Source: Cyanidioschyzon merolae
Taxonomy: Eukaryota
Length of the DNA stretch: 64,000 nt
Assembly: GCA_000091205.1 (NCBI GenBank)
Contig: AP006493.2
Strand: one strand, 5' to 3'
Part shown: positions 9,102 through 63,464 of the stretch, piece after piece
Layout: each line of letters begins with the position of its first letter
Numbering within the stretch: position 1 is the first letter of the stretch
The notes under the pieces: model-generated
Told to the model about the DNA's origin: nothing
Seen by the model: only the letters and a program-made list of their open reading frames with translations
Database searches by the model: none
Position numbers and translations under genes: made by a program

Positions 9102-9971
9102 TAGTCGCCCATGCGTACACGCAATCCTAAGCAGCGTGCGCGCAAACGGAAACCGCTCGCGATAGATGCGGACGTTGTGCGAGCACCTCTAAAACCAAAC
9201 CAGGTTGCACACTCAAAGTGTGCCTGCACCGCCTTGCATAAACTGCCTGCAAGCGCCACCCAAAGCTACAGTGGCTGTCGGGGCGACGCCCTGCCGCTCT
9301 CGCTCCCTGTACGGCGCCGCGGAGTGCAACAGTCCAATAGGCCTCCAACGTTTACGCGCTACTGGAGAGCGTCTTCCCGTTGCAGAGCAAATTTTGAAAC
9401 AGCTTCCCGCCCTGCTGCTGTATCAACCTCGCTTAAGAGCAACTGCTTTGTGCTACGAAGAATGCAGGACGTATACGTCTCCACAGCAAAACCGACGCAT
9501 AGCGCACATGCGGAGCGTCCAGCACAGTCGGCAAATTCTTTTTCATGGACAAAACGTGTCCATGGGCCAGCGGTCTCCGATTGTGCGCTTTTTCCTTTCT
9601 TTTCTTTTTTGTCAGCGTGCGGTGAAGTATCCATCAAACCGCCTGCTTCCAAGTTACATTATCCATACTTCTTCTCGGATATTCTGGTCGTTTGGTTCGT
9701 TCTATTGTGTGCCGAGCGCCTGCTTTGTTGGCCCGCAATGCCGCCTATAGCGCCGGTGCGGTCTCTGCGCCGAGGCAGAACACGGCGTTGCCGTACCACA
9801 CAGAGGACATCGGTTCGGAAGCAGTCGGTCAATGCGTGACGCTTTCGGGTCGTGTGCAAGCAACGAGCGCACCTGCGCTCTTTGGAGCGCATGCTTGCTG
9901 CCTGGTGCGGGATTCAAGGATCGATGGATTCGAGGCAGCACCCGACTCGAATACGCTGGACAAAGGTTGGA

Positions 9972-11308
9972 TGTATGGAAGACGACACTGCTTCCTCCAA
10001 TGCTGCTTTTTAAATCTTTTCCAGAGTTCCTACGCTGTACAGCACCGACGTCCGACGTGCCACTATGAAGGATAACCGATTTGTACGTACTACGTATCGG
10101 ATGCTCGCGGTGGTTGTTTCGGATTGGTTCATTCGACGCGTCGCCGCCAGCATTCGTTACCATACGAAAATCGTGATGATTCGAAATGGGCTCGAGAAAC
10201 GCACCCTAAAATAATCGATATCAGTATCCAATGCATACAGGCGAGCCTGCGCTATCCTCCGTGACGTATTGCGCAGGTGTTCGATTGCTGGGCTTCGAGG
10301 CACCTCGCGGGTGCAGCGTCTCGTGCGCAGAGCTCCACGGCGAGGGAGCCTTGACGTCGTCCCTTATTGGCGTGCTCGTGAGCGCATGCCAAAAGCCCGC
10401 TCAACCTGTCACGTCAAGTTATCGAGGCCGTCCAAAATTCATCGCCGCCTCGGTTTGTGGTCATCGACGGCATGGCGTGCAGCAACCGCTTGATAACGGT
10501 TGCGGGAAACGATCCCCAGAGGCTCCCTTGACTTCTGACTGCAGCGGAGAACGCGTATTGGACGCACACTCGAGTCGTCGCAGCGATCGCTTCGAGTGCA
10601 GCGCGCGTCACCGCTTTGCGAGACGAAAGCGCATTCCGTCCGAGAGTTCTCGGCTTGATCTCCAGCCCGGGGACTTCCCTCTGGCTCTTGCTCCATCGAA
10701 GCGAGCAACGCCTCTCGCAAGCTCCCTATCGAACCTGTGAGCAAACGCGTGCGACAGCAGCGGGCAGAGTGAGTACTCGCCGAGTGGATCACCCGCACGG
10801 AGCCTGTGATCGCTGGGTACACCACCAGCCCCGGTAGCAGAGGAGCGCATCGACGGGAGCCTTCCTGTATCGGTCCATGGCATGCGCTGAGCAATGGGGC
10901 AAGCGCTCGTGAACCAGAGCGTCGCCCGTCGGACAAGACGGGGGCCTCGACGGACATAGCTGCACCTCTGACAGCAGCCCCAAATCAGAGTTGCATTGAG
11001 CGCACCGGGGCTGTCTCCAGGAAGCAATGGAAACTGCGAGCGAAGCGCGAATCACAGCATTCGCTCGCTCATGGTCTGCTCCGATAGCAGCCGGAGGCAT
11101 CGAAATCGGGACTCGCACGCACTGCCATCAGCATCCTTCGACTGCTGAAGAGAGGCATGGTGGGAAATGAGCGACCGGCGTATTTGAACCTGGAGATAAG
11201 CGAGAGGCGAAGGAAGCACTCGGAGATAGAGCCAGCCACGTCCTATGCTGCCTACTGTGGGAACAGACCAAACCTTTGTCGTGTATGAACGAGTCAGAGG
11301 ATTCCGTC
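9972..11308 (+). repeat. Direct repeat family A, copy 2
   Basis: See copy 1. Both boundaries start at gGACGACACTGCTTCC and end at ...GAGTCAGAGGATTC. Confidence 0.9.
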
Positions 11309-12854
11309 AATGGTATTATGACTTGCATGTATGCGTGCATGCAAATAGTCTGATACCAGAGAAGCCGCCATCTTCTCTCTCTAAGTGCGACGACGCTCCG
11401 CTCATTTCTAGAGCAGAATACCCGTCAGGAATGGATGCTCGACCGATCTCGCGATAATCCAGGTGCTGCACCTCTGTCGGGCTCACGCATATGCTTCTAA
11501 TGCAGGCACAGGGCAGCGACTGAAGCGCTTCGCCAGACGCTGGTTGTGCGCTTGCCAGGTCACGCACACTCGTCTCATACGGTGCGAACTCCATGCATTC
11601 ATCGAGCTTTCCCCGGTGTACCCAAATGCTGCTGGTGGCCACACAAGAGACCTCGGGTTCACCATGAGCGTTTCAACGTGTCTCGCACTCCATACTGGTG
11701 CTCTCCTCGGAATTCGAGCTGAGATGTATCCTGTGAGGATTCAGTTGCGGCACCTTACGCGACCACCGATGAATACCTGGTGCTTGCGTAATGCCGTGTG
11801 CGGGCGCTGACACGAACTGCAGTATGCTTCTGTGCGAGGCCAGCATGTGCCGTATTCCTGGAATCCAACAGGATGCGTAGCCAGGATACACTCATGTGCT
11901 ATGCTTTCGTGCCGAAAAGCTTCCCATCGTATATGTGTACCGCTCGCAGTGCCGATCACAAGCGCAGTGCTGTGGCGACAAGGGATCAAACATCGTGCCG
12001 TACTGTCGCGGTTTCGCCTCTGATGTGAACGGCGTTTCCGACTCAACGAGCCGCCGCCAGTCTCCCGTGAGCCGCTGCCTTTCTTCATGCGGTCGAGAGC
12101 CAGTCGCGATCAAGGCTCTTTGCGTACATCGAGGCAATGCCTGATTCTTTTGCAAAAATGCAGTGTGTCGATGACATGCTGGGGCTTCCAACCGCCACCT
12201 ACCGCGTCGGTGTCTGAGTATGTATGTGGTCAGTGATGCAGAAAACGCTCTGCGACACTAGAGCGTAATGATACATACACTTACAGACGCCTCCAGTCCT
12301 TCTTTGACCCGCTGACTGCTATAGATTTTGTTTTATCCAGGCAGAGAACGACCCTGAGAGGCTGCCACACCAAGTCGCATAGCGACAGCTTCCCGGTTCT
12401 CGCCTCGAGCAGTACACTTTACATGATATGGATGGCGGCGTTGATGTCCCGGTTCACGTACTCCTTGCGTTTATTGCCTGGAGTGGAACTCGCCTTTGCA
12501 AGGATTGTTTGACCTCGTGCACTCTGCGCCACTACAAGCTCATCATTATCCTGCCGTGCTGGCACCGTTTCTCGCCTATCTCCTCTCTCTTTTTCTTCGT
12601 CTCCTTCGCTCGATCATCGGTGAGAAGAGGATTTTTCCGTTTTTGTCGAACCCGGCGATGACGGGCATCTAGGATCTTCCACTTCTATGCCCATCGCTTT
12701 CCCTTAGACTTTATATTTCTTCAAATGAACGTACATCGAACCCATCTACTATAAACCGTGAAAAAGCAGTTGGTTACTGTATTCTAGAGGTGGAACACCA
12801 TTGCGTTGAAAGACTAAACGTTAGCCGTCAGGCACTTTCAGTTGAGCGCGCGCG

Positions 12855-15095: not shown

Positions 15096-16439
15096 TTGAT
15101 CGAGCTGCTTCGGGGTGTGGGTGCGGGTCCCGATGCATTGTACGCATCATGAAAACGCATCCAGACGCTCTGCACTGAGATGGAACCAGAGTCGCACGTC
15201 GCAAGGCATCGAAGGGCGTACCAGACGCTGGCGACGCTGGTGAACGTTGCCGACGCTGTCACGTGCGCTGGGCGCCAGGAGACTGCGTTTGCGCTATTCG
15301 GTATCGACAGCGGTCGTCTGCAGCGCTCAGCACCCCAAAACGTCAATACAGCAGGCGTTTAGGATCTTGAGTTGCTTAGTAGATGGTACTGATTGTGAGG
15401 TGGCGGTGTCCGCGGGTGCGTTTACAACCGCGGCTCCGTGCACGCATCCTCGTGGCTGAGTTTACGTGCCGTTTCTATATGTGCAGTACGCGCGTCGCAA
15501 ATATCCCGGCTGCGGTCATTGCATACTCATGGATATCGTGTCTGGGAGCAGCACGGGCAGCTACCAAATGCCGAAGAAAACTACTTCCATTGTGTAAACA
15601 TGTATATGTGTGTATGCGGCGCTCCAGTGTGTCAGAAATGCTGACCGTTCCACACCAGTTGCTTCGTCGAGGCGGGAATCCAGTCACGTTTCTCCTGGTC
15701 GCTGCTTTCGTTCCTTCCGAAAAGTTGCAATGTTTCCGCACAATGCCTTCGCCGAGTACGAAACGATTCCCATGGAATTCCGCTCGATAGAAAGCCGTTG
15801 GACGCTCAGAAAGCATGCCGCATATCAGGGTATTGACCGAGACGGTCAAGTGCCGTTGCAAAAAGTGTTTGCGGGCGTTGCTGCAGGTGGAATCACGCGA
15901 GAACAAGCCTCTCAACTTCGACTGACTTGCCGTCTGATATTCGATCGGCTCCATGTGCGCGCTTCAGTGCATGTGGCTCTGATACACGCTCTTGGTCTCA
16001 AGCTGTCCTCCCAAGAACACTTGCTCGTGATGCGCGTATACCCTCTTGAACGCATCGATGGGAATCGTGTAGAATCGATTCCTGCACTCCCTGTCTGCTC
16101 AAGGCGACGCCCTGGGATTGCGGTATTCGCACGTCAATGCACATTCACGGCCATAGGCTATCAAGAATCGATGCGACTTGTCGGTCACTTCCTTTTCTGA
16201 CTCTTTGAATACGTTTGCGAATGTATGCCCCTTGCCTCTGTGCAAGAAAAACAGCGGCGACTTTTACGCTATCTCATGTGCTCCTGTCAGGTGTCGTCCG
16301 CATGGACGATTTGGACGCTCATCTAATTTCTGCATGAATCACAAAAACATCCACATTTTCTCGATAGGTTGCAAAACGCATCGAGATGAATCATGACGCC
16401 GTCATCGCCTTTGTTGGTATACCCGCGTTGCGCCGATCA

Positions 16440-16580
16440 TGTCCGACTCTGTTGGTACTACCGAGCCCTGACAAAGCTGAGCGGATTCATCTGCATTCTG
16501 TTCAGGTCCTTGGCGCCGTCCTCTTGACTCAGCGGCCTGGCGACGGCCAGATGCCCCGCAACCCGAAATCCGCACCCCAC
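16440..16580 (+). repeat. Short dispersed repeat, copy 1 (core about 60 bp; inverted relative to the copy at 39290..39425)
   Basis: ccgagccctgacaaagctgagcggattcatctgcattctgttcaggtccttggcgccg matches the reverse complement of 39345..39402 at about 85% identity. Spurious ORFs on both strands share ...GAKDLNR(M/K)QMNPL(S/N)F.... Confidence 0.6.
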
Positions 16581-18135
16581 TACGAAATCGTTCACTGCAT
16601 CCACCAGGAGTCGTTGAAAAAAAATCACCGCGCACTGAGCAGACGTACAGTACAGCGCAGTCCAGAGCATCACTATCTACAGTGATACAATGAATGTCTA
16701 TGTGAAATAAACGGAGCACATCGAACCGAGGGTCAGGGAGGGCGACGGTTCTCGCATTTCGTTTCAATGCTGCCGTGCCCTGGGGGGATCCGTTCAGGAG
16801 CACCTGGTAACCCAAGGCGCAAGGAGAGCAGGCATCAAGTTGGATCCATCCTTTTTATACAAAGTTCGTCGGTCCGATGTCGTGAGTTCCACCCTGAGCT
16901 TGCTCGTTCTGTTGTGACGTTCGCACGCGTTGCTGCATCGCTTCCGAACACGCGACCACGTCGAGCTTTTCCGAGTCCAGCTCGTCATTTGACTCCATCG
17001 ACTCGCGAGCAACCCTTTCTATCAGTCCAAACTTGTCGGATCTAGTAACCATAGGGCAGATAAATACATAAATTCTCACAGAGAGCTCTTCATGAAGCGC
17101 TCGATATTGACCCGCATATGTGTTTTGAGGTGATGATGCGATATATCCGCACTTACGCAATCGAACTTGATCCATCGTGGACGTGGCGTGGCGAATCGCC
17201 AGGCTCTTCATGGACACGGTTCGTAAATTCCCTGATCCTATGCTTATTCCGCACTGGGTCTTCGGTTCCGACGATCACCCGTGCCGTTGCACAAAGGCAA
17301 TGTCGATAAGTACAAACGAAATGTGAACAGCTTGCAGCCCTGCGTCCGAACGATGACAAACCGTTGCTCGATGAGATGCGTCAAGGCGAGCAAAGCAACC
17401 CGGACTTTCCGCAGCTCAGAGGCTGCACCATCCCTGATCGTGTCCTGCATCTCTTGTTTTCGAATATTCTCCCCGTTGATGTTCTGTAGTAGGCAGGGTT
17501 TGGGAACCGAATCACAATGACCATTCCGCTCTGACAGTGTTCGCTCTCAGTCAGTTCCCGCCCGTTTCCAGCAAAATCTTTCTGTTCTTCGTTTGGCGGC
17601 GTCGTATCCTTCATCTCCTTGGTCGTCCAGTGAAGTTCTCAACCATATTTCTGGAAGCGTAAGCTTGTCTCACGGCCACCGTTGGCAGGCGCACTCACAC
17701 TGATGCCCTTCACGCTCGGTATGCGAATGAGCACTGCAAGCGGAGACGAGACTTTTATGCGGTTTTGCGTGAAACGCTCAGCATGAATCGACCAGAAACG
17801 TACCAACACACAATAAGATACAGGCCTATTCGATACAAAGTCTCTCCTGCTACCCAGGACGTCGTGCATTGCTGGAGCACCGGATGCCCAGCATTCTCGG
17901 AAAAGCCTAGAGCCCCGCGCAACGCACTGCGAACGGAAACCTTCTGGTGCGCTCTGTGCTTAGCGATAGCGGAGAGACTGTATCGCAAAGATTCAGGCGG
18001 TATGCCAATGACTAATTTACTGCAAAATCTAGACTTGCTGAAGAAACTGATGGAACTGGGCGTCTAGTCCAGGGTTTATTTGCAACGATATCGCTCTGCG
18101 CTGGCACACTGCGAACATACGCTGCGCCGGTTTCC

Positions 18136-20010
18136 GTGCGGCGGCAGCGTCCTCGGTCGCTATCCGTCTACAAGCGACCGTACATGCTCGCAACCGGAAA
18201 CGCTTCGAAGCAAGAGAAGCGCCCTCCGTCGGGTTCCGCTTTCGAGCGTGGTCGACGAAAGCGGTCAACAACGTATACCTCCCGAACCAAGCTGCGGAAA
18301 CCGGAATCTCCAACCGATGAGTTCGGAACCGCTGAACCGGGCTCATGGGCGTCACTTGTCAAGTCTCGTCCGGGTTCAGTTGCCCTCTGGCTAAAATACG
18401 CCGCATCCGAAACCCAGAAACGTGGTCCCGAAGCCGGTCGAGAAGTCCTGGAGCAAGCCCTCCAGAGCCGGGATCTCTACCGACAGGAGGCATTGTGGCG
18501 TGCCTTGGCCACGAAATATCAGACCTGTTATGAAGCGGCTCTAAAGAAGATACGACAAGCTATTCAGCTCCTGCCAAGAAGTGCGTCGCTCTGGGAACTG
18601 TACACAGAGCTTCGTTATTTTCCATCGGAGGTGCTGGTTCGCTGCCCGCTGGATGAATGCAGCGACGCTGACGATCGTACACAAGTGCCACTCTTTGTTC
18701 ATTTCGAACAAGAATGGCTCACCGCTTTGCAAGAAACACACGCAAGTCTAGAAGAAAAGGAGCATGTGTATCTCATCTGGGCCGCAACCTTGCGGCGGCT
18801 ACAGAACACGCAAGCATCCTCCTGCAGCCGTGCTGAGAACCTGGAAACTGCAGCGCGTGATTTTCCCGAAAAAAACATAGATGCTGTCGCACGGGCGTCG
18901 TCCGGGGAAACGATCGCTCATGCTGTGCTTCTACGTGGAGCGCGTTGTCTTCGTTCAGCTCGTTTATGGAAATACTTCCTGGAAAGCGCCGTATCACTAA
19001 GCGGGAACGACGACCTGGCCCTGCTCGAGGAGGCCATGTGCAGCGTCCCGCCTCTACGCAATGATTCATGGTTCTGCGATGTTCTTCGAGCGCGCCGTGA
19101 GCGCTGGGCTCTTGAACGCGATACAAGGACGCTTGCGAGCCACGTCGAGCGTTTCCCTACAGATCCGGAAGCGTGGCTCATGTTTGCCGAACACTATCGA
19201 TCTGTGTACGCTGATGAAACCCAAGCGGAAGCGATTTTGTTGACTTTCTTGCAGTACGGCTTTTCTCAAGCACCTGGTGACTCGGTCGCCCGCTTCATTG
19301 CTACCTTGCTGGATCAATCTTGGTCCCGTACGAGGAGCCTTGCTCGAGTGCGCGCTTTTCAGGAGAGCGCCCTTGCCTGTGCAAGCGATCGAGCCGCTCG
19401 AGATGCTATTTTTCGGGAATCTTTGCGATTTGAGCGCTACAAAGCAGTCTGTCTGGAGCGATGTAGGGAGCTGTTTCGTCGTTGGCTCGCGGAGGCTCCG
19501 CATTTAGCCTCGGTTTGGGCATCCTGGGCGCAGCTCGAACGCGAGGTGGCGAAGGTGCCGGCCAACGCTGTTCTGGTACTGCAGGTCGCCGTGGATTTGT
19601 TTCATGAGGCATTTGAGCTGCATCCATCCGGTGATGCGATGTGTCGGCAGCGTCAAATGCTGCAGATTCTGGCGCTTTGGAGATCACTGATCGATTCGCG
19701 CCTTGCGGAATGCTCAGATCCGCAGCAGCAACAGGACGCTCTTCGGAGCGCTTACCGAGTCTTGTTGAACAGATATTCCAATTCGCTTGCGGTTGTTTGC
19801 TCGTATGCAGCATTGGAAGCTTTTACTGGCGAAGGAGGCCTTGATTCGGCGCTGGAATTCTTGCGTCAGAGAAGACTAGAGGAGCACTGGCCTCCAGAAG
19901 ATCAGCTGCGACTAACTGAATTCGTAGCGGCGTTACGGAGAACACACGCCGCGGTGAGTCGGCGGATACGAGCTCGTCTCTGGCAAGATATCCGCGATCC
20001 GTCTGACTAG
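18136..20010 (+). CDS. HAT/TPR (half-a-TPR) repeat protein, probable RNA-processing factor
   Basis: Repeated W-L-x-Y/F-A helical repeats (WLKYAASETQKRG, WLMFAEHYRSVYADE, WASWAQLEREVAK) resembling HAT repeats. The specific family is not resolved. Confidence 0.45.
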   Translation: MRRQRPRSLSVYKRPYMLATGNASKQEKRPPSGSAFERGRRKRSTTYTSRTKLRKPESPTDEFGTAEPGSWASLVKSRPGSVALWLKYAASETQKRGPEAGREVLEQALQSRDLYRQEALWRALATKYQTCYEAALKKIRQAIQLLPRSASLWELYTELRYFPSEVLVRCPLDECSDADDRTQVPLFVHFEQEWLTALQETHASLEEKEHVYLIWAATLRRLQNTQASSCSRAENLETAARDFPEKNIDAVARASSGETIAHAVLLRGARCLRSARLWKYFLESAVSLSGNDDLALLEEAMCSVPPLRNDSWFCDVLRARRERWALERDTRTLASHVERFPTDPEAWLMFAEHYRSVYADETQAEAILLTFLQYGFSQAPGDSVARFIATLLDQSWSRTRSLARVRAFQESALACASDRAARDAIFRESLRFERYKAVCLERCRELFRRWLAEAPHLASVWASWAQLEREVAKVPANAVLVLQVAVDLFHEAFELHPSGDAMCRQRQMLQILALWRSLIDSRLAECSDPQQQQDALRSAYRVLLNRYSNSLAVVCSYAALEAFTGEGGLDSALEFLRQRRLEEHWPPEDQLRLTEFVAALRRTHAAVSRRIRARLWQDIRDPSD

Positions 20011-21185
20011 AAACTTGTAGATTTGGGGCAAAAACAGAGACACTAGGAGGTGCATAGTCCCCAGCTTTGGTGAAACGCGTAATTTCCGTGTTTGAGGCGG
20101 GTCATCCAGTGGTCCAAGACCCCGAGTTGCTGTGTGTTGCACAAGTGCCCGGTGCGCGCGGCCACGTAACGACGTGCATGGTCCGTAACTGATATGAGTT
20201 ACACGAATGCAGCGGGACAGCAGTGATGAACTCGGGCGCAGTATCTCAACACCTAACCTGCCTGGGTCTTGTATTCGTCATTTTTACATCAATTGTGCCG
20301 CTGCGTCACGCGGAGAACTTCACAAATCATTCCTCTGCTCCACAAGCAAATCAAAGCGAGAACGATATGCGGAGCGAAAACGGGCAGTAGACGAGTACTC
20401 GCCCGATATCTAACGAGAATCGAAAGCGCCCTGATTCGCGTATCGCAGATCAATGGGAATCCGAGGCCCTGTTTGCTCCGCCCAGGGTGCTCAGTGCTGC
20501 GATGTGCTACAACCGCTCCAGCTTTTCAAGTTTTGTACAGGCGGCAATTTGACATCCAATGCCCCACCAGATCTAGACGCATCTCCATTCATGTACATGA
20601 ATTCCAAAAGGCCATCCCCTGCACTAGGCTTGCAGAACGGCGCACTGCAGGATCGCAAGCGACCAGGTGCTGTGAATGTCTTGTTGTATGCAGAGCAGTG
20701 AACTCTGGTGCACATGTGCCAGGACGTCGTTTTTGTGATCGCTTCGTTTTTCTCGTGAGTGTTCATGAAAAGGATTGTTTCCTGTAGATTGGAGAACGGT
20801 GACGGAATGATTTTATGATGTTTCGGCTAGCTAGAAAAAAACGGACTTGCATCTGCTATTCAATGATTTTCCGCTCAGCTGGTAAATGAACCACCTTTCT
20901 CGTACACGTTATCCTGAACGTCCTGTATTCAAAACAAGACCATTCAATTTCAATGTACAAGACTGTCTGCTCGTGCACCCATTCCACTCCATAAGTTGTG
21001 TGAAAAAGACTCCCAAAAAAGCCACAGGACATGATGAATGTTTTGCTGTTCATTCAAACTGTGACGGATAGACACGGATGGGTAGAGAAAAAAGCACGCT
21101 TCTCGGTGAGGCAGTCATGCGTTGATCAACACACGCTCGATTCCGTGCTGGAACGTAAACGCTTAACTTTTTTGGACTTGGTCCT

Positions 21186-22500
21186 GTGACACCCCCGCTG
21201 AATTTATTCGAATGCCTTCTCGCAGCGTATAGATATGGAGATAGAGACCAGGACGCAGTGTACCGTGCAGATCGTAGACGAATTGCCTTTGGAATATATT
21301 GTTTACTGAATGGCGCAAGCAGGACTGTATTTCTACCTCAGGTCAGTCATAACTCAGTGCGCAGATGTTTGGTGAACACTAAAAGAAGCAAGTACTGGCG
21401 CTCCGCGCCGCACACGAACACTCTTGAAGACTGCTTGCGATCAACGGTAGAAATCAACACGTTGATCAGCTTACGGAAGGCAAAAGCGATGCTTGTAGTC
21501 GCCACGGGCGTCTCTCCTTCTAGTCAGCTTGTTCGTATTTTCCTAGAAACTCTGGGATCCATTCGCCAAGGAAAGAGTCATTGTTCACGAACGGCTCTTT
21601 TCCACCGAAATCGCAACGAAAGCGTTCCTGGAATGCCGCGATGATTATAAAATACAGGAACGTCAGTTTGTTTTTTAGTCGATGTGACTTGCCTCGGATG
21701 AAACAGTCCTTGCGTATATCGATATTCGCGGAGCAGGGCCCCCATGCTACGTACTATCGAACTCGTAGAGAACGGGGAAATCATGTGTTCCCGCTGCATT
21801 GGATTCATTTGGCGGCCGCAATTACGCTCACGGAAAAAGCCTATAGAACAACACCAAGCACTTCGTCGAATCATGGAATACTTTTCCCATGATGTCTGGC
21901 GACGTCCTTCTAGTGGCCAACATGGTATTTCACGATCCCTGTTGCGTTCGAGCTTTTGCCGATTCTATCTTGGAAAAGAGCTACTTTTCATCCCGGCGTA
22001 CTTTTCGAGCTTGAACCGTATCTGAAGGGGTGTATTCTCTCGAGAACCGTAACGATTGCCCCAGGAGGCGAATCGTTCAAGCGCTCAGCACACGGTTATA
22101 CCGGGACGCATGTCGTCTTTCTTCCGCAAATCCCTCTTCCTCCAGAAAGGCCCTCACCTAAGGGTATAAAGAAGTGCGTTGCGATTAGAAAAATTAAGGC
22201 ATGAGCTCGATTATACGCTTCAGAAAGTCGAGATACGGAGAAGGCGAAGAAGGGCCCGGTAGATAAAAAATGCATATCGCAGACAGAGCGATAAATAGCA
22301 GAGAGGGCACGAGTTCGAGGAATCCTCGCACTTTCAGCTCAAACAGAGGCACAGAACGCATGGCATTCATGAACCGAGACTTTAACGCCGCCATCAGTAT
22401 CAGGAGTTGCGCAAGGCTGAAGAAGAGGCCCCAGGAGCTGAAGCTGTCTAACTTTGTGATGCAGCCTCTTCGACTCTCGAAGTTGACAAAGAGAAGCTGA
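21186..22500 (+). mobile_element. Decayed TnpB/Fanzor-like (IS605 OrfB-type RuvC nuclease) element, copy 1
   Basis: C-terminal RuvC-III signature MAFMNRDFNAAISIRSCA at 22360..22401. An upstream zinc-ribbon-like segment reads TIELVENGEIMCSRCIGF. It sits in a lower-GC island. The reading frame is interrupted, so it is not a clean single ORF. Confidence 0.4.
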
Positions 22501-22799
22501 AGCCGATGGCGGGCGGCCGGTCCAAAAACGCTGGGAGGCGTCTGCGTATGGGTATTCATTTACCCTCCAAGGTCGTAGTACATTTAATGTTTCACGGACA
22601 TGTGCAGTTTCCGTCCGTGCTGCAGACTGGTGCAGCTTCCCGCCACCTGCCCCATGCTGGAAAGCATTCGTTACGCTGCGACGCGCCAGCCGCGCAGCGT
22701 CGCCGGATATTCCAGAGCCGCCGCGACCTCGCGCTTGAGAGCGCACGTTCCGTTAGAAACGGGGTTTTTCGTTTTGGAGCGGGTGCAGAGGCCGTAGTC

Positions 22800-23258
22800 A
22801 TGTCGACACCGGCTCGGAGAAGACTCATACGGGACTTCAAGAAACTGCAACAGGATCCTCCTGCTGGTATCTCAGCAGCACCAAGTGAAGCAGACGTCTT
22901 GAAGTGGACAGGAGTAATTTTCGGCCCGGAGGACTCCGTGTTTGAAGGCGGGGTCTTCAAGTTGACCCTAACGTTCAGCGAGGAGTACCCAAATAAGCCT
23001 CCTGTCGTCAAGTTTATAACCAAAGTCTTTCATCCTAACTTTTACTATGGAGACGGAGGAGTCTGTTTGGACTTGCTCCAGAACAGCTGGAGCCCCATCT
23101 ATGACGTTGCGGCCGTCTTGACCTCTATTCAGTCGTTGCTGTGTGACCCCAACCCGAACTCGCCGGCGAATGCGGAGGCCGCCAGGCTATACCTAGAAGA
23201 CCGGCGAGAGTATAATAAACGCGTCCTGCAGTGCGTGGAAGAGTCGTGGTTGACTTGA
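22800..23258 (+). CDS. UBC2: Ubiquitin-conjugating enzyme E2 (UBC2/RAD6 family), 152 aa
   Basis: [30 protein letters not shown]...[20 protein letters not shown]...[36 protein letters not shown] is near-identical across the whole length to RAD6/UBE2A. ORF 22506..23258 is an upstream extension; the true start is the ATG at 22800. Confidence 0.9.
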
Positions 23259-24937: not shown

Positions 24938-26852
24938 TTATCTAACCTGAACCCGAGACCCCTCCAAGTTAAAGAGCGTCTCGACTGATGACTTTAAAGA
25001 ACTCGGCGAACCCTGAACCAGAGCAGACCGGAACTCGTAAAATCGATCGTTTTTGTTGCCGCCCTGCAACCGGGCCAGATGGAAACGTGATATTGAGCTG
25101 GTTGCCCGGTTCCTGCCATCCGATTTCTTTCCGAACTTTTTTTCGTAGATACACGGCCTCGATATTCCAATTCAGCACTAGGGGTTTACGAATCAATATG
25201 CAGGTTTTGAACTGGCGGTCGTGTTGTTGGGGTGGCTCCGTCTACTCTTTGCGGATGGAGTGCGTTAGACCACCGGCATCAGGATGATTCGCGAAGCATT
25301 CGAGCTGCGGTTCCTGAAATAACCGATACCATTATCCCGTTTACATGAACAGGCACCCAGTCTTCTCCATTTGTTCCGTTTACCATGCTCGAATCCCGTT
25401 TGTTTCAAGTTTTCGATCTTTCGCTTCCAAGGCAACTCAAGGGCGCAGCAGTATGCCCTGCAGCATTGACGAGGAAAAAACTCGACGAATTCCCTGGACG
25501 ACATCTGCTAAGGCTTATGCCAAAAGTTCGCTGAACTTTAAATCCTAAGAATCTATATAGGTTGATACACAAACCACTCTCGCTTTGTGTTCATCCATGA
25601 AACGTCATTCAACAGCCACAGGATAACGCTTACGAAACATATTTGGAGAGGCTCCCGTCTCTCCTGTGTGCATGGAGAAGCGTATCGGATACGGAATTGA
25701 GTCGTTACACCGACCGGCCAGTAGTGGAGCGCCCATCACCGCTATGCATGAAAGGAACTAAGACGGACGACAAATTCTCAACTTGTTCTCCAGCCTGGAT
25801 TATCCTTCCAGTATTTTTTATCATCAAGGACCAGCTCGTGCTCAACAAATCCTCTATCGAATGCGACCGCGCGCGCTTAGGTGAATAGCGGACAACATAC
25901 TCGGTGTAGGGATCGCGCAGAAGAGACTCGTTGTCATGATGCACGACGCCGACCGCGGAACCGCAGGAGGTTTTTCATGGGAGTCGTCTGTGGCCGTCAA
26001 TGGCATGTACCTGGCGACAATGAAAGCGCTCACACACCACAGGGTCAGTCTCGGAGGAGGAGGCGTAGGTGCGGTAGACCGACGAAAAAGTTTTGGACGC
26101 AGTCAGCTGGACCGCTGCAAAATGCTCACCGCGGCCGTAAACAAAGAGGACGAACATGGCAACCGAACAGGAGATCGCAACTTCCCCAAACGCATGAAAT
26201 GTATCAACAGCAGCCGGAAGCAGCGAAATAGGGACTTGCACGCTCCCGTCAAGAAGCTTCGATCTCTGACATCAGCGCAAGACGAAAAACAGAAACGGGC
26301 GTGGGTAAAACCGGAGATTAGAGAGAGAAGAGGCAACAGTCGCATCACAAGTCCGCCAAGGCAGATGTTGACACCAGCGGGAGGCGCCTCAAACCTCATT
26401 CTATCTGCCTGCGTTTCTGGACGAATTCCATTTGACGCTGACCTGGTTATAGTCCCTGCGTGCTCGACGATGCTGGGCTTTGCTTACGCGCTGGTGAGAA
26501 TGCGCGCTCTTTTCGAAGTTTGAATATCCAGAACGCAGGAAACTTGGCTGGATGCTACTTGAGAATGTCTGCTGTGGGAAAGCCGGGAATCCACCGAAGC
26601 AGCAGGCAACATTTGTGGCGCATTCACACCTCTGCACCCCAAAGGCAATAATATGTGTATTTACGCTACGGCCGATGTAGAACTGTTTTCTTGCAAATGC
26701 GTCGCAATCTCTGAATCGTTCAACGCCTCAGCTTTCTGTAGCTTGACTTCCCAAACACCATTCCAGTCGTCGAGTGCGCGGGCGCTCGCCACTACTCCAT
26801 GCACAATACAGACCTGCTACTGTCTCGCAGCGTACACTGCACTGCCCTGGGA

Positions 26853-30292: not shown

Positions 30293-31575
30293 GTGATCCC
30301 CAGAAAGAGCACCCAAGTGGGAACTCAAGAAAGCTGCCACCAAACCCAGTCACCTACTCACAGCGCTGTAGATCCGAAAAGCCGTGCATACAAATCTTTA
30401 GACCAATTGGCACGCGAGTTTGTAGCTGGGAATCAGAAGATCGCCAGAGAACTGGGACGGCTGGCACCAGAACGCAACAGTTGCAAAGCGCAGAACCTGA
30501 AACGACGTACCAAAACTCGGATTGATGGATGCTACCGACTCAACAAGATCGTCAACCGCACCGCCATACGTGCCAACGCCGGAGACAAGGAAGCGAAGGC
30601 AGCGCTACCGGCGCTATTGCGGGCGATCAGGGCAGGCGCTCGGTGCACGATTTTACGTATGAAACGACCAGAATATCCGAGAAGAAGTATGGGTAATGTA
30701 ACTTGGAGGTGGGCGGTTTGATGGATACTTCACCGCACACTAACAAAAAAGAAAAGAAAAATGCGCATAATCGGAGAACGATGGCCTAAGTAAACGTTTT
30801 GTCAATGAAAACAAAATCGCAATACCCAAGCGTGCGGAAGATGGTAACGACTGTAACTTACGTCAGAAGGACATGCGTCTGTTGAGGTCCTGGAGAGCAA
30901 GATACTATCGAGAATCGGGAATAATGAATGCGAGGACAAAAATCGAGATATGGAATGCAGGAATGAAGGATCACCCCTGGAAGCTAGGAGCGAGGTGACG
31001 AGCCTAGGAGCGGACCTTCAAGCTTTTCGGAAGTTTCATGGAAGTTAGCGTTGTTCATTGGGAGGCGCTGTGGAATGAATATACAAAGCCCCGGTGGGCT
31101 CGTCTGCGTATGAATCTATATTGTGGGAAGCGGCGTGCATTTGACAACTTTTTTAGTTCGTTGAGCGCCTTGAAGGAGAATGAAAATCAGAGGCTCGTAA
31201 TTGCGTATGGAGCAGGGCGCTGGAAGACCCAATAAGGGATTACGCCAGCTCCAACGATGAGAACGTACACGGAGTGTGCACGTCGTTTTGTTACGATACC
31301 TGTAGAAGAGTTCCGAACGTCCTAGACACACCATAATCTGGGGTGTACGCTCCAGCGGGTTGAGATGAAAAAGCGCCAGCGGAGCTCTGAGGATATAAAA
31401 AAGTACGGAGCACTGACGGAAGAGCAAATGGAAAGGAAAGCGAAATTTCGAGGATTGCTTGCATGAGTAAGTACAACGAATGATGGCAAGAAACGTATGG
31501 AGTTTGTGAACCGGGACTTGAATGCCGCGATCAGTGTGCGGAGATATGCGTTGATGGAGACGAGGTCTACAGAGT
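30293..31575 (+). mobile_element. Decayed TnpB/Fanzor-like element, copy 2 (pseudogene with stops and frameshifts)
   Basis: Segments on the + strand in shifting frames: ...RWARLRMNLYCGKRRAFDNFFSSL...ENQRLVIAYGAGRW, then ...RRFVTIPVEEFRTS (the TnpB V.VdEyrTSk motif), then MEFVNRDLNAAISVRRYAL at 31497..31540 (RuvC-III). It is about 70-80% identical at DNA level to the motif regions at 22350 and 43228. Sits in a low-GC island. Confidence 0.5.
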
Positions 31576-32008
31576 AGACAAGAGTGAATTTTCTTGGACA
31601 ACCACGCAAAGTGGATTTATATTGGAAAAAGTTGGAAGTATTAGATGGCCGCTCGAGAACACCTGGAAGGCACCTGCACGTCAGCTGTAGACGTCTTGTC
31701 TAGGGCGGTTTACTCGCCACTACTGTGCACTGCCGGCGGCATCGTTTTTCTTTTCAAGGGCGTTCGGTTTCGGAGGTGATGAACTTTTCGTGTTCCGGAA
31801 CAAAAGCACTAAAACGTTGCCGTTCCCGGAGCTGGGGTATTTGCTTAGTCGTTTTCAACTTTTCCGTGTAGACGACTGAGGTATTACGCGTTATACTGGG
31901 CTGCAGAGGGGAGCACAAAAGCTCCGCAAGCAAACTCGAAGGTATTTTAGGTAGCCTGATCGAAACGCAGAAGCGCTGGTCCGTAACTTCCCGGGTACGA
32001 AAGGAAAC

Positions 32009-36786: not shown

Positions 36787-39289
36787 CGCACGAGTGTCAG
36801 ATCCAGTAGCTGCTTGCGTCGAGCGCTACCCAGCACGTTTGCAATAGACGCTGTTGTCGAGCGTTCGACAGCGTCGCCGCGGCTCGACGCTGCTGCAAGA
36901 CTCGAAGGACTCGCTTACCCAGAGCAGTGAACACTGAACCCCTGTGTACCAGCACAGTCTTTTGGTTCTCCTTCGTTGTTCTCGCAGGTACTCAATAACA
37001 GTTATGGGTTGCGTACCTGGGAGAGACCGGCCGCGCGATGCGTTTTTGACGACAATGCTGGCATGCGAGCATGCAGCTGGACTTGTTGTACGGTCAGCAG
37101 GAGGATACATGACCCTGTGTTTCGTCCTTATCCTGAACGTGGTGCACTGTCAGTGGAACTTGTAAATTCTCTATGTACTTGACTGTCTCATCGTCAATCC
37201 ATTCTGCTCGATACGGTCTCTGAGAAATTCGAAGAAAGCAGCCATAGGATATGAAGTTTCCGTACCTTTCATCTGAGCTGTGATGAAGCGACACAACTAG
37301 CCAAAGAAACAAATGCGATTCTATAGGAACATGTCGCTCGTTGAATAACGGATAATTGATGTCGTACTGAAACAGCAACGCTGATTCCAGTGGGTATGGA
37401 TGCTCGTCGCACCCGATGAGACTTTCTTCAGGAAATATGGTAGGGATGGATACGCGCTCCCAAACAAGAGCAAAACGCTGTCCTCAGAGAAGAGCACAGT
37501 GTGCATTCCGACCACACCAGTATCAGCCGCGATGCAATCGTGTCGTCACTTAGAAATCCCGAAACGAACAGGATCGCTCAAAAGCTCATCCTTCATCGAC
37601 GCAGGTCGTGACTTCTGTTTCCGTTCCTCTTGCCTTCTCTTCGTCGGAATCGCTTTTCTTCGCTCATTAGCGGTCAAAGAGTAGGCAGCCTCGAGAGGCG
37701 TCACTTTGCTCGTTGCCCCAGCATATTCCGTCCAGTTTAATCCCGTCGGAGGTGTCTTCGCTATTGTTAGATGCCACGGCTACGCTTGCGTACGCAATAG
37801 ATGACTCGTGCGCATACGTGAAAACGTCCGTCAACCAATGGTTCTCCAGCTTCACCAGCAGCGAAATACTGTGCTGCAGTCCGGCGTTTGCGTCGGAGCG
37901 AGGCGAAAGACCGCGCTCCTTTCTATGGGCGTGCTCGCGACACAAAAGGTGAACGAAGAGGAACTCGTGGCTTAGTCGACACGTACGTACTCTACGAAGG
38001 CGGACTTTTTTCCTACTGATTATCCAGTGCGTCTGAGTCGCGAGGCAGCAAATGGATACAGAGTACAGCGCTCGCATCCACGTCATCCCGCCATGTGAAT
38101 GTGAGCTGAAACAGCACCGGACGAAGTTGAGGCGATCCTCCCGAAAATGGGATGAGAAAGGACGGCAAGGGAAAACATTCGGAGCGGAAGCAACAATCTC
38201 ATACATTTATCCAGGCCACTTTATAAGAACACATCAACATGGAGAATCTTCCACAAAGTGTGGTTCAGGACGCCATCACGCATCGTGTAGCCTGTTGCTC
38301 CAGGAACGCTCGCACAGCTTCTCCAGTCTTGACGTATCTCGTCATGCAACTGTTTGGACGAGCTCCGGTCGCAGGGATGCCAGGTGTCAACATTCCTCTG
38401 GAATTTCTCGTTCAAATCTTCATACGAAAACTGATACTGGGCACAGAGGATGCAAAACGACCAGATCGTAGGATCAGGGATTCGTATAGATTCACTTACC
38501 AGAATACCTCGACGTTTCGCCGTGTCATCTCAGCAACTGAAATATGGTACACAGTTCAGGTGCCCAGAAGTATCAACCCAATCTCAAGGATCAAAACGAC
38601 ATGCGAGTCAATGTAGTGCGCTTCATGAAACGCACAATGCAGCGATGGTTTCCGTCGTACCCTCATTACATTCACCCAGAAAAGTCGGGACAAACCGAAG
38701 GCGCTGTCCAGCGGTGTGATAGAAGCAAATAGCAGACTGGTGATGGCGGAAGCGATCGATATGGTAGGGAAAGTCGCTTGAGATCGTCCAAGCTCATGGT
38801 GTCACCTCTGACTGCGAGTCGGCGAAGGTTGCCTCTAAATAACGAATGAAACGTGATGCCTCTCTTCCGTGCATCTCTCGCTACAACTCTTTTCTGGACG
38901 GAGCCCGCGAACCCGAAGCGAATTCCCTACCCCAAGTCGGGCGCTCTGGACTCCTCAGACACCTATACGACGTGATGCGCATGCCCTACATCATGAGGCA
39001 TCACATCACTGCAGACACTTTTGTGGAATACTGTACGATCTTTATTGTGAGCTGCGGCTGATCTAAGCATGAAACTAGGAAGCACTCACAAAAAGTTCGC
39101 ATGGAGCATAAGCGATACGATTTCAGTGTTTCTCGTTTCCAGGCACGATGCGGAAAAAGGTTTCCGGACAAGATGAAGCGCTGCGCACTAGCCATTTTCA
39201 TTCACTTTTCTGAAACTCGAGCCTGACCCCAGCAACAGAACTCGCTTTCAACCGATCCGGGGAGAGGAAGAGAAAGAATTCGTGGTAGG

Positions 39290-39425
39290 TATAGATCCGG
39301 GGGTTTCGGGTGGTCGTACGCGTTGCCCCAGGCCCGACATCACAGGCACGGCGCCAAAGACCTGAACAGAAAACAGATGAACCCCCTCAACTTTTCCAGG
39401 GCTCGGTATCATCCCACATCGGGCG
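39290..39425 (-). repeat. Short dispersed repeat, copy 2 (inverted relative to 16440..16580)
   Basis: The reverse complement of 39345..39402 aligns to 16455..16512 at about 85% identity. Similarity in the flanking sequence is weaker, about 65%. Confidence 0.6.
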
Positions 39426-40640
39426 TGACAGACGCCAATTTGCATACGTTCAAGTGGAATGACGGTGTCGGGAACCGTCTCGATGTTCTGCGCCCCGTAC
39501 CGATCGGAAGCAGATGTTATGTGCGCTTTCTTCGGAGCGTCGATGATCGTCCCAGAGGCTCACACGGACGCTCTCTGGCAGGAGCACATGAAACGCGCGG
39601 GGATCGTCGCCTGTTTCTGTCGCATGAATGCAAGCAGCCTGCAATCTCTAACTTGTCCAATGCATTGGAAAAAGGAAATGCCCCATAACTCGCGTCGGTT
39701 GATAGAAGCTTCCAGCGCTGGACTTGCTGGAATGTGCAGGGATTCCACACCCGATCCCTTGACGAGAGCGCAGAACAAGTGCAGGAATTGATGCTGCTCG
39801 ACTCCCATCGTTCGATTCATTGGGATGTATACGCAACACGGGCACAGCTGCAAAATGAAGCAGCATAGGAGAGCGCAAACAGATCTGGATGCTTCAAATG
39901 GCATCCGATAAGCTGATCGAGTCTCAGCTGGCGAGGCGGTAGACGGCAAGCCGCTCGCTACAGTATGCTTGGACGAGCAAGTGTCCACCCGAGCACTTTC
40001 CGCACCGGGCATTGAACACCTCGATCAACACCAGGACGTGTCTTGCTCGTCTGTAATGTGAACGGGTTTGTGCTGAACTGCACTCCAAGGTAATCAATTT
40101 TATCTCTCTATGCACGTATTGTGCGGAGACGCTACTGACTTTCGATTCAAAAATCAGTGCCATGCGAGAAAGAGCACTGGGTTCTCGTTTCGAGCACGCC
40201 ACCGGTACGGCACATTCCAGGATTTCAGCAAGCCTGGAACGCTGCACGCAAAAATGACGTGAACGATTTTGCCCGGTAATTGGAGAACAAAAATGGTGTT
40301 CCACCATTCGATATTACAAAGCATACTGGTGCAGTGGGTTGCGCTATCGATGCACCCTTTCGATGATGAGTGGGTTCCAGCGGGTCAGTTCGTCCGCGAT
40401 GCCGCCACGTAGCGCTCCTATGCAAGGGGTGCGAATGCTCCTGCGTACCCGCGGGCGCCAGATGACGGGCAGACAGGCAAAGTGACCGACCGATTGTCCG
40501 TCCGTCCCGCTGAATGGCTGAACGCGTGACTGTCCGTCCATCTGCCTGTTTGTCTTTTTCATGTTAGGATTGATAGCGCCAGCATCGGGGCGGCAACGTT
40601 GAGGTTTCGGGATCATCATGCACACACAGGGTGATAAACT

Positions 40641-42670: not shown

Positions 42671-42869
42671 AGGTTACTACACGCACCCTCGTTCAGCACT
42701 CGAGGGGTACTTGCTTTTCGAACGCGCCGCTTCTGTAACGCGCTACGAACGCGGCTGCTCAAGCGCGGTGTATCGCCCAGTGCGGCGGCATCGAAGGGCG
42801 CCTCAGCGGCGTCATCGGCTACTGGAATGGTGAGCACATCACAGGGTCTCTTTCTTTTAGTCTTTCAAC

Positions 42870-43145
42870 ACAATTACGTTCCACGTCCAGGTGTGTATCA
42901 TTAGCTGCTTTTACCCGGGTTATAGCAGATGCGTTCAAAGTGCGTTCATTGGAAGAAATAAAAAGTCCAAGGGAATGGGACGGGTACATAAGTCGAGGCT
43001 TTTGGAGGCATAGAGTCACGGCTGCTGGACAAAAAAACGAATAAAATCTTGTTGTCGCTTACTTTCTAACAGATACGAGCACGTGACGACGAAAGAGAAG
43101 AAGCAGATGCGAGATAGGTGAGAAAACGTGTACGCGCCCGACGGG
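42870..43145 (+). repeat. Dispersed repeat family B, copy 1 (about 80% identical to 48425..48725)
   Basis: caattacgttccacgtccaggtgtgtatcattagctgcttttacccgggttatagcagatgcgttcaaagtgcgttcattggaagaaataaaaagtc aligns to 48437..48545. Spurious ORFs on the minus strand share ISSNERTLN..A...DTHLD.E.NCV. Copy 1 lies just upstream of the MPPA start, next to a Fanzor-like relic. Confidence 0.65.
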
Positions 43146-43149
43146 ACAA

Positions 43150-43330
43150 TGACGAGACCGCAGTGGCCCGTCGGGCACGAGTTCGATGAACCCCTACAGA
43201 GGCGAGTTCCACCAGAGGCAATAAAAGCATGGCGTTCGTGAAGCGATACTTGAACGCTGCGCTCAGTATGAGACGATATGGTGTGCTGGAGACGATATGC
43301 GCGGAGCTGAACCGTTCTAACTATGCAGGG
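43150..43330 (+). mobile_element. TnpB/Fanzor-like relic, copy 3 (C-terminal fragment only)
   Basis: MAFVKRYLNAALSMRRYGVLET at 43229..43295. Its DNA is about 70-75% identical to the RuvC-III motif regions at 22351 and 31497. The RDxNAA site is mutated to RYLNAA. Confidence 0.35.
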
Positions 43331-43663
43331 GCAGCTTCTGCTACTCGAATTGTACCTGGATGAGCTGAAACCGATACCAGCCGGCCGGGTCAAAAAGGCT
43401 GGCAGGCATCTGTGACTGTGTGTGTATCTAGAAACTCTATGGTCGCCGAACTTTTTCCGTCTTACTTCGAATCATATTACTCGGGCGTTAACGACTCCCG
43501 GAGAACCCGGGACGCTGCAGTATCCGATCGTCTACCTGTATGTCTATGACTCTATCCGAGATTGAGAGTGCGGGTAGGAGCTGAGGTCTACCCCGACGGT
43601 TATTGGCAGCACTCGTGTGTCGGGCGAACTCTGTACCGAGTCGTCGCTCACATGCCATGGGTG

Positions 43664-47225: not shown

Positions 47226-48424
47226 ATCGGTCACGAGTAAAGCAAGCTGCTTCGTAAAACATAACGTCCAAGGTTGTTGGATTGCATTGCAAAAGATGGA
47301 TCGTGGTTTCTGTTGAATTCGTGACGGGAATCGTGCCCGAGGATTTGGATGCGTGGGCGAGCATCAGTAGCGGCGAGTGTGCCGCTACCGCTCGAGGTAT
47401 TGATTTGCTGGCGTTCTCACGAACAGCATCAGAGGCTCGCCTCAAAGGGCGCTGCCGATGATAAAACGCTGGACGCCATTGTTCGCTCGGCGGGTCGCCA
47501 CGGCCAGTAGATAACGACGAGCGCAACGCGTACGCTAGTGACTGCATAAAGTCGCTCTCGCAGCACAGTTGCGCTCCTCCGGCAAATTGGCACGCTGTTC
47601 TCGTTGCTCTCATATCGCGTCAACCAGGACGGTAGAGGCGATTTGCTGCGCAAATAGCGGGTTTCAGTTCTCCATCGAAACCACCCGAACGGGAACCGGG
47701 TCACAACCGAATGGCCTGCAGAGTCAACTTCTGCTCCTTCCTGGACATGACATATCGGTTTGCACTGGACAGCAACGACTTGAGTTAGATTCGTGCCTCT
47801 TTGCGTTCTCAGCTGCCATCGCATACCAACAAACAGCGCACCACGATTCGTGCGCATCAAACCGGCATGTCGCTCGATGCTCGGGCGGAAAACCTCCCGC
47901 ATGGAGCGCAGCCGCATCCTCGTCAGGTATCAGCAGCATGAATGCGCGTAGTAAGCAACTTGAGGCGCTGCATGCACCCAGCTGTCCACAGTATGCACCA
48001 TGACATCGAATCGTGAACGGTGCCGGAGCGCTGCATCGGGCTAGCTATCCTGCGAGTACTCGATTGTCGCCATAGACCAGAGCGCCAGCCATGGTAACCC
48101 GGCGCATGCGCCTTCTTGCCTACAGCGCTAAACGATTCTTCTCTTCGATCACAGAGCTGGAGTCGCTCCTACCGCTTAGACTCCCCGGGTATCGAGCGTA
48201 TGAGTTGCGCCTGCCGCGTCGTCGACTACGCAAGTCCATACGCAGCACGCCAGGGAATTGGCCCTTGAAGGCTCGTATAAACGACACATGATTTTGAGAG
48301 AAGAAGCATGGATGATCGTGACTGGTGAAACCACGAAATCTGGTGCAGCACGCAACGCTACGAGACCACCACCACGATCACGACAATTATCGAGATGACC
48401 TGCAACCGACAGCGCGTTTCACGT

Positions 48425-48725
48425 ATGGTCTTCCAACGCAATTGGATTCCGCGTCCAGGTGCGTGTCGTCAACTGCTTTTCCCCAGTTAATAGCAAATGT
48501 GTTGAGGGTGCGTTCATTTGAAGAAATAGAACCTAAGAGAAAGGTACAGGTATAAAAGTCAATAATCCTGGAGGGTCGGTGTCGGCGGGATCGACCAAAA
48601 AAGAAGAGAATGCTCTTTTTGCCGACCATCGAGCGAAGAACATCAAGAAACGACGACGACGACGATGACGAAGAAGAAGCAGCAGCAGCAGCAGCGCGGT
48701 GATAGATGAGAAACGGTGCTTAGCC
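48425..48725 (+). repeat. Dispersed repeat family B, copy 2
   Basis: See copy 1. Followed by a (GAC)n/(GCA)n trinucleotide tract at 48640..48700. It lies about 300 bp upstream of the giant gene start. Confidence 0.65.
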
Positions 48726-57029: not shown

Positions 57030-57072
<43 letters not shown>

Positions 57073-59432: not shown

Positions 59433-59451
59433 TACGCCGCTATCTCCGTAG

Positions 59452-62974: not shown

Positions 62975-63464
62975 GGGACGCTACGGGCGCTCGGAAAGCT
63001 TGTTCGAGAAACGCACCCAGTCCAAGAGAGCCGACAGAGGCTCGTACCCGCCCGCTACCAGCCCTACCGCCCGCAACGCTGAGCTTGTCGGAAAACTGCC
63101 AAAGACCGTCGACTGCATGACGCAGCGGTGTCATGGGAACGTGGACTGGATACGATTGCGGAGCTTCTGGTATTCGTTCGGGTCAACGGGGACGATGGAC
63201 TTGAGGATCTGTAGAGTAGATTGAAGGAAGCCCAACTCGAGCGACGGGAGAGTCCAGCATCCTTGCACCGTACTGGTCGCTGTCTCGCAGACTCTTTGAT
63301 AAACTCATGCGATATTAGCGCAGGATAAAACGGGTGCACTTGGGTAACTCGGGTGTACAGACTCCAGTTTGGGCTCTCTTTGCTCTGTCATAGACAGAAG
63401 CTTATGCAGGACGTTGCTTCTCCGGTATCCTCGTCTTCAAATACGACGGTATCTGGGGTGCCTT

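Follow-up and report, generated by a model that had tools for sequence, protein, structure and literature searches.

The stretch at about 21170-22600 of the DNA analysed here, which had been flagged for a RuvC-III-like peptide, is in our estimate (about 93% probable) one dead, ORF-less and internally deleted derivative of the Fanzor1-carrying CMe-1 transposon family, and the other copies of the peptide are remnants of the same family. The window, by which we mean the whole 64,000-nucleotide stretch of Cyanidioschyzon merolae DNA, contains at least six protein-bearing Fanzor remnants. Those outside the flagged region are a 5'-truncated CMe-1A copy, two ~0.6-kb ORF-less derivatives and two much older full-length pseudogenes (Table 1). 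Every copy in the window is disrupted and no copy is able to encode a nuclease. The original prediction of decayed TnpB/Fanzor-like (RuvC-type) transposon remnants is thereby supported, and what had been flagged as a motif is RuvC-III of the Fanzor1 protein CMe-1.

Genomic setting and verification of the motif

The products of four ATG-to-stop ORFs in the window match exactly the C. merolae 10D proteins BAM80596, BAM80601, BAM80605 and BAM80611, and the window is therefore red-algal nuclear DNA, in agreement with the prediction of a eukaryotic nuclear contig. Further large ORFs belong to ordinary host genes without introns (RadA-like ATPase, PRP39-like, WD40 and TPR), and these host genes also include a short-chain dehydrogenase and a triose-phosphate transporter.

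Peptides of the form M(A/E)F(M/V)NRD(F/L)NAAIS had been reported at 22360, 31497 and 43229, and at all three positions the translations read as claimed. A degenerate DNA pattern for the RuvC-III motif matched the window at four sites, namely 12430-12460 on the minus strand, 22366, 31503 and 43235, compared with no match in 100 shuffles. All three copies originally counted are thus real, but the number of motif-bearing copies is four, and to these come two older copies at 15754-17564 (-) and 38131-40042 (+). The similarity between the copies had been overestimated: instead of 70-80% DNA identity we measured 53-69% over approximately 235 aligned bases, and self-BLAST between the copies first noted detects only the pair of copy 1 and copy 3, at 69% identity. 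Their location in lower-GC islands holds modestly, with GC contents of 0.49-0.52 for the copies and 0.554 for the window as a whole.

Table 1 Transposon-derived features in the window, with coordinates relative to its first nucleotide.
Feature	Position	Strand	Basis and extent
Solo TE-N2_CMe-like fragment	9548..9819	+	consensus 5-255; nhmmer E 9e-26
Copy 4	12239..12822	-	consensus 782-1069 joined to 2840-3123
Old near-full-length Fanzor1 pseudogene	15754..17564	-	about 30% amino-acid identity to CMe-1; tblastn to CMe-1 residues 424-700, E 6e-24; nhmmer; HMM
Copy 1, 5' module	21170..22197	+	non-coding; 5' boundary set by alignment A7
Copy 1, 3' module	22199..22600	+	consensus 2735 to ~3150; 3' boundary set by alignment A8
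TE-N2_CMe-like fragment	30607..30804	-	consensus 4-190; nhmmer E 6e-23
Copy 2, 5'-truncated CMe-1A	30814..31761	+	consensus 2221-3168, running to the 3' end of the element
Second old near-full-length Fanzor1 pseudogene	38131..40042	+	N-terminal to RuvC regions covered, 22-34% amino-acid identity
Copy 3	42856..43414	+	consensus 786-1068 joined to 2834-3085; nhmmer E 4e-18 and 3e-21
Solo 5'-region fragment ("repeat B" of the original prediction)	48376..48658	+	consensus 722-1004; nhmmer E 2e-15, self-BLAST, alignment A6

The window also holds repeats and compositional oddities of its own. A 1325-bp direct duplication with 99.2% identity (3795-5119 and 9980-11304, 6.2 kb apart) brackets the dehydrogenase and triose-phosphate transporter genes; it has a GC content of about 0.6 and no clear ORF, and looks like a recent segmental duplication. 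A 561-bp direct repeat of 97.3% identity is found at 59431-59991 and 63440-64000, the second copy running off the end of the window, and a perfect 31-bp inverted match connects 2131-2161 with 57045-57075 at a distance of 55 kb. The region 25001-26000 is lower in GC (0.497), gives no match to the CMe-1A consensus and contains only low-complexity mechanical ORFs.

The copies are remnants of the CMe-1 family

CMe-1A is the Fanzor1 element of C. merolae described by Bao & Jurka in 2013 (Mobile DNA 4:12, PMC3627910), and it belongs to the single Fanzor family given for this organism (PMC3627910). Approximately 150 copies were reported, each about 80% identical to a 3169-bp consensus that lacks terminal inverted repeats and encodes the 734-aa Fanzor1 protein CMe-1; some genomic copies still encode intact proteins, and the 5' 635 bp of CMe-1A are common to a second element, TE-N2_CMe (PMC3627910). 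The consensus DNA and the CMe-1 protein were taken from the supplementary files of that paper and mapped onto the window with blastn, tblastn and nhmmer.

Copy 2 is 85% identical to the consensus over 951 bp in blastn (nhmmer E 5e-215), a long match that exceeds the roughly 80% DNA identity expected at family level and places it within CMe-1A, and its translation is 73.5% identical to CMe-1 residues 440-734 (tblastn E 4e-136). It had been said to keep further segments of the TnpB/Fanzor core, and ENQRLVIAYGAGRW and VTIPVEEFRTS can indeed be read in its translations. Four in-frame stops and a frameshifted stretch document its decay, and RuvC-I is missing. The TE-N2_CMe-like fragment at 30607-30804 is inverted and abuts the truncated 5' end of copy 2; by self-BLAST it is 83% identical to 9540-9753.

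With no more than 62-69% identity to the CMe-1A consensus, copies 1, 3 and 4 are related older or sister subfamilies and not CMe-1A sensu stricto. Copy 4, which the original prediction missed, carries the RuvC-III motif as KEYVNRDINAAIHIM*, and in copy 3 the RuvC-III Asp has been replaced by Tyr (VKRYLNAALS). Copy 3, copy 4 and the metagenome locus L010 have one junction in common (alignment A6). Since the junction of L010 is identical, the ~0.6-kb ORF-less derivative has propagated as such, and the two window copies do not stem from two independent deletions. The contact between copy 3 and a dispersed "repeat B" that had been pointed out is real, but "repeat B" turns out to be the 5' half of copy 3's own short element, and it also occurs as a solo fragment (Table 1).

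The two older copies show approximately 22-36% protein identity to CMe-1 and its relatives, the best relative of the copy at 15754-17564 being P0172. Neither contains an ORF of at least 250 aa, though the RuvC-I region is spanned. They are remnants of a much older lineage or of a second family. A 61-bp inverted match of 87% identity (16459-16519 versus 39348-39408) links the two, consistent with both being members of one older family. At the very edge of the window, positions 17-172 (+) give a weak tblastn match (33%, E 8e-7) to the C-terminal part of the relative P0191 and may be another old Fanzor remnant.

The shared motif could instead belong to an ordinary host gene family of paralogous cellular genes. 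The copies do stand between normal host genes, and a mechanical ORF at 22506-23258 goes from the tail of copy 1 into the gene of a ubiquitin-conjugating enzyme. However, all copies contain stops, frameshifts or large deletions, they match the published transposon consensus of about 150 copies including its non-coding ends, and the same units are present at non-syntenic metagenome loci, while the ORF in question is explained by read-through (see below). We therefore regard paralogous cellular genes as a very unlikely source of the motif, and take the copies to be remnants of the CMe-1 transposon family.

The flagged region is a single ORF-less element

The original prediction had proposed to align the three loci in order to find the element boundaries. 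Alignments A7 and A8 placed the ends of the copy-1 element at about 21170 and about 22600, respectively. Within the 3' module, 22199-22549 corresponds to consensus 2735-3088 (nhmmer E 3e-35), while the rest of copy 1 is without a consensus match. The module aligns with CMe-1 residues 611-726 in tblastn, and it contains the RuvC-III remnant MAFMNRDFNAAISIR at 22360-22404 followed by a decayed C-terminal tail.

The 5' module (21176-22197) gave no Pfam match, and it is 66-71% identical over 0.9-1.0 kb to three metagenome segments, L042:918-1815, L009:5847-6870 and L001:11648-12579. The L042 and L009 segments are positioned directly upstream of consensus 869/870, just before the Fanzor ATG, and in L001 the 5' module is joined to consensus 2737, which is the same 869-to-2735 junction as in copy 1 of the window. 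Given the shared ~1-kb module and the L001 junction, copy 1 is therefore a single ORF-less element of approximately 1.4 kb, in which an alternative ~1-kb 5' module leads directly into the final ~400 bp of the Fanzor unit.

A C-S-R-C stretch at about 21786 had been described as a zinc-ribbon-like part of copy 1. It is situated some 400 bp upstream of the point where Fanzor homology starts (22055-22199), inside the non-coding module, and a permissive HMM search of 19900-22400 detected no Fanzor homology upstream of the 3' module. Without any Fanzor signal there, the C-S-R-C is not a zinc ribbon and is a chance match in non-coding DNA; CxxC is absent altogether from the consensus of the CMe-1 family. 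The same search excluded an old full-length Fanzor copy underlying the whole low-GC island.

The mechanical 250-aa ORF at 22506-23258 (+) begins inside the tail of copy 1, and 13 of its residues there equal the Fanzor C-terminus. A fusion of the copy-1 tail with the E2 gene was considered and ruled out: the UQ_con domain (E2 ubiquitin-conjugating) begins only at residue 106 and is preceded by an internal Met, so that the upstream extension is read-through and not a fusion. The start of the E2 gene is probably this internal Met, approximately 250 bp downstream of the element.

CMe-1 is a member of Fanzor1

The conceptually translated window copies had no match in Pfam or NCBIfam, phmmer against PDB sequences returned only noise for copy 2 and for the full CMe-1 consensus, and a narrow family profile (A1) against the PDB was noise as well. 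It is clear from these blanks that a library HMM search, which the original prediction had proposed as a test, gives a false negative when it is applied to the window copies, and that a tie to the solved Fanzors requires a broader profile or a comparison of folds. At the level of the family, profiles and fold do match Fanzor1. Comparison of A1 by hhalign with alignment A2, which is made up of the published CRe/CVu/VCa/PUl Fanzor1 proteins from green algae and Pythium, gave 99.3% at E 2.4e-20, with the alignment running from the post-RuvC-I region via DEFRTS to NRD-NAA. When all 1.84 billion representatives were scanned with HMMER, 1272 relatives were retrieved, of which many measure 600-740 aa, and a profile of 24 relatives (A3) matched 9cf0, the PpFz1 of Parasitella parasitica, in the PDB at E 4.4e-18. 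Weak matches to Pfam PF07282 were seen for 11 of these 24 relatives, which are distant and full-length (best E 5.6e-5). An AlphaFold model of a metagenome member of the family (pLDDT 77) had SpuFz1 8gkh as its best Foldseek match (E 2e-10, TM 0.54), followed by PpFz, GtFz, ISDra2 TnpB 8h1j and Cas12 proteins.

At the family level, both the consensus and the metagenome relatives possess the RuvC D...E...D triad (GADPG, DEFRTS and NRDFNAA), in alignment with the Fanzor1 motifs, and the peptide that was first flagged aligns with the RuvC-III Asp segment of Fanzor1 proteins. The CCCC zinc finger is included in the defining Fanzor motif by Bao & Jurka (PMC3627910) and is conserved between SpuFz1 and TnpB according to Saito et al. 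(PMC10432273). Between the [TS][TS] motif and RD, where Fanzor1 proteins have CxxC...CxxC, the CMe-1 consensus reads TSYTHHELGC...LALVSTT and lacks this finger, and throughout the CMe-1 clade (alignments A1, A3 and A10) at most one of the four zinc-finger cysteines remains. Due to the missing CCCC finger, nuclease activity of an intact CMe-1 is not guaranteed.

The homology between Fanzor and TnpB, and the presence of ISDra2 TnpB among the fold matches, could suggest that the remnants are of prokaryotic TnpB (IS200/IS605 or IS607), brought in by contamination or by a recent bacterial transfer. Such an origin is highly improbable, because the genes on either side match C. merolae nuclear genes exactly, Fanzor1 proteins (SpuFz, PpFz, GtFz) outrank TnpB in sequence as well as fold matches, no model of the prokaryotic NCBIfam library matches, and the 734-aa consensus protein has the long N-terminal half typical of Fanzor1. 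Carriage by a multi-copy eukaryotic transposable element is evident from the remnants in the window, the metagenome loci described below and the ~150 reported copies, and we retain the Fanzor1 assignment.

The presence of at least one live Fanzor system in the window, with an intact nuclease gene and an omega-RNA carrying out RNA-guided cleavage, is extremely improbable. The context of the RuvC-II Glu is kept in copy 2 and the RuvC-III Asp in copies 1, 2 and 4, and some genomic copies are stated to encode intact proteins in the 2013 paper (PMC3627910). Against this, no ORF of at least 250 aa overlaps any copy in the window, so that an intact ORF with all three RuvC motifs is absent; RuvC-I is deleted or truncated in all four motif-bearing copies, copy 2 and copy 3 have the lesions described above, and shuffled sequences fold at least as well as the 3' region of copy 2 (z +0.67).

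The family in metagenomes

Searching for homologues of the translated copy 2 yielded 153 metagenome proteins of about 70-80% identity, in which the motifs GADPGNTN, VVAYGAGRW, DEFRTS and NRDFNAAINIRR are found. We confirmed 381 metagenome loci of the CMe-1 family, and a near-full ORF was seen in one out of 80 loci. Across 71 copies, conservation was 0.93-0.97 at codon positions 1 and 2 compared with approximately 0.78 at position 3, and it follows that the protein was under selection while the family diversified. Most copies of the family are dead today, and none in the window keeps the ORF.

Just upstream of RuvC-I (consensus 2117-2196), a 78-bp unit of 26 codons is present in tandem from one to about six times across the metagenome copies L002-L081, and the number of repeats gives rise to a variable acidic/lysine-rich linker in the protein. 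In seven loci (L027, L035, L041, L043, L054, L055 and L076) the 3' ~1.1 kb of the element forms a head-to-head palindrome, and the breakpoints fall at consensus ~2060-2110, close to the tandem repeats.

The 5' ends are variable in another manner. TE-N2_CMe can adjoin the Fanzor unit at its 5' end in both orientations, and many copies begin at consensus ~645 behind a different upstream module (L047, L050, L061, L071 and L079 versus L009, L019, L024 and L051; in the window 30607-30814). The alternative upstream modules and the two orientations of TE-N2_CMe make the published CMe-1A consensus look composite. From these sequences the 5' region looks modular, with at least three alternative modules.

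A retained 3' module in the ORF-less derivatives

Both classes of ORF-less derivatives, the one represented by copy 1 and the short one of copies 3 and 4, retain the same 3' module. Over the final ~150 nt of the ORF the codon-position signature described above disappears, and conservation is flat across the codon positions. At the 3' terminus a hairpin was read from the alignments (unscored), the sequence of which varies between variants while the pairing is kept, and it is preceded by an invariant GGCG...CGCC stem with a free loop, likewise read from the alignments. The hairpin variants occupy the last ~35 nt (alignment A5; for example L041 versus L013 versus L030), such as CGTTTTTC/GAAAGGCG and CGTCGTTCGA/TCGAACGGCG; in L030 the stem is a perfect 12 bp, and a G/T-rich stretch follows the hairpins. 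A Helitron2-like class was considered on account of these 3' terminal hairpins but was not adopted.

It had been suggested that the 3' flanks could hold omega-RNA-like structure, and folding lent this no support, with z -1.74 for the 3' 182 nt of the consensus and the positive value for copy 2 given above. RNAalifold returned essentially no consensus structure or covariation, either for 51 copies or for 20 copies of greater diversity, and Rfam reported nothing in the whole window at gathering thresholds. On the indirect hints of its retention, the flat codon-position conservation and the hairpins, the 3' module is a possible omega-RNA or right end.

The ORF-less derivatives could be seen not as debris but as "ghosts" kept mobile by a functional cis element, the 3' module of approximately 300 bp comprising the omega-RNA and the right end. 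Two independent deletion classes keep the consensus from ~2735 or ~2833 to the 3' end, and their junctions recur at unrelated loci; the flat codon-position conservation and the terminal hairpins of differing sequence point in the same direction. A precedent exists in the 134 ORF-less ghost Spu-1 loci, which retain the inverted repeats flanking the gene, and in the SpuFz1 omega-RNA, which is transcribed from the 3' inverted repeat (PMC10432273). Weighed against the absence of consensus structure and covariation, single-sequence folds that are no better than shuffles, and the heavy decay of the window copies themselves (62-69% to the consensus), we find a functional module of this kind possible but rather doubtful, and for the copies in the window we keep to the description as dead derivatives of the CMe-1 family.

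Discussion

The original prediction was right, yet it is no discovery, since the CMe-1 family was published in 2013: from that year not only the family has been known but also its copy number, the Fanzor1 protein that it encodes and the absence of terminal repeats, and the remark that such elements are not routinely annotated does not apply to a family that is already in print (PMC3627910). The copies in the window agree with CMe-1A in that they stem from the same organism, all map to defined intervals of the consensus and are accompanied by TE-N2_CMe fragments. They differ in that copies 1, 3 and 4 have a different and shorter 3' tail, and in that the ~1-kb 5' module of copy 1 is missing from the published consensus. 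Two ORF-less deletion derivatives and two old copies of ~30% identity are not found in the paper by Bao & Jurka.

The RNA-guided nuclease activity of Fanzor was demonstrated in 2023. With SpuFz1, PpFz1 and GtFz1 (8gkh, 9cf0 and 9cer) CMe-1 has in common a homologous RuvC core with its D (GADPG), E (DEFRTS) and D (NRD), carriage by a multi-copy eukaryotic transposon, and the existence of ORF-less "ghost" derivatives. Unlike these systems, the CMe-1 clade is devoid of the CCCC zinc finger of the NUC/TNB domain and CMe-1A lacks terminal inverted repeats, and the identity of CMe-1 to the solved Fanzor1 proteins is only 12-18%. Bacterial TnpB (IS200/IS605 and IS607; ISDra2 8h1j) resembles CMe-1 in its RuvC fold, D-E-D logic and a C-terminal RD followed by NAA, but it is a protein of about 400 aa with a CCCC zinc ribbon and a TnpA partner, and it is recognised by Pfam and NCBIfam, whereas the window copies are recognised by neither library.

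As in known Fanzor and TnpB systems, the intact ancestor would have encoded a 734-aa RuvC nuclease, which by homology with SpuFz1 (PMC10432273) would have been guided by an omega-RNA from the 3' end of the element. Cutting of DNA beside a short target-adjacent motif would then help the element to persist, and the ORF-less derivatives could spread using proteins from intact copies, a route that we propose because loci unrelated to each other have identical deletion junctions (window, L001 and L010). To view the CMe-1 lineage as a zinc-finger-less Fanzor1 clade, whose cis-acting ~300-bp 3' module is the omega-RNA and right end, is a speculative and on balance unlikely proposal. That module may, as read from the alignments, consist of the end of the ORF and a short tail with the variable terminal hairpin, and two independent ORF-less "ghost" families, one of them including copy 1, retain precisely this part of the element and appear to have spread along with it.

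As a discovery the finding carries little weight, and its practical value is in annotation. The intergenic lower-GC islands of C. merolae studied here are transposon debris and not genes, the window copies doing nothing beyond taking up intergenic lower-GC DNA, and mechanical ORFs should not be called as genes there, for example 21186-21644 or the upstream extension of the E2 gene. Three minor points may be of use to transposon specialists: two classes of ORF-less derivatives recur and retain the 3' module, the 5' regions are modular, and the clade has no CCCC zinc finger. Should the proposal of a cis-acting 3' module be true, C. merolae, a genetically tractable alga whose genome is very small, would offer a natural system in which to study how non-autonomous elements are maintained with the help of Fanzor.
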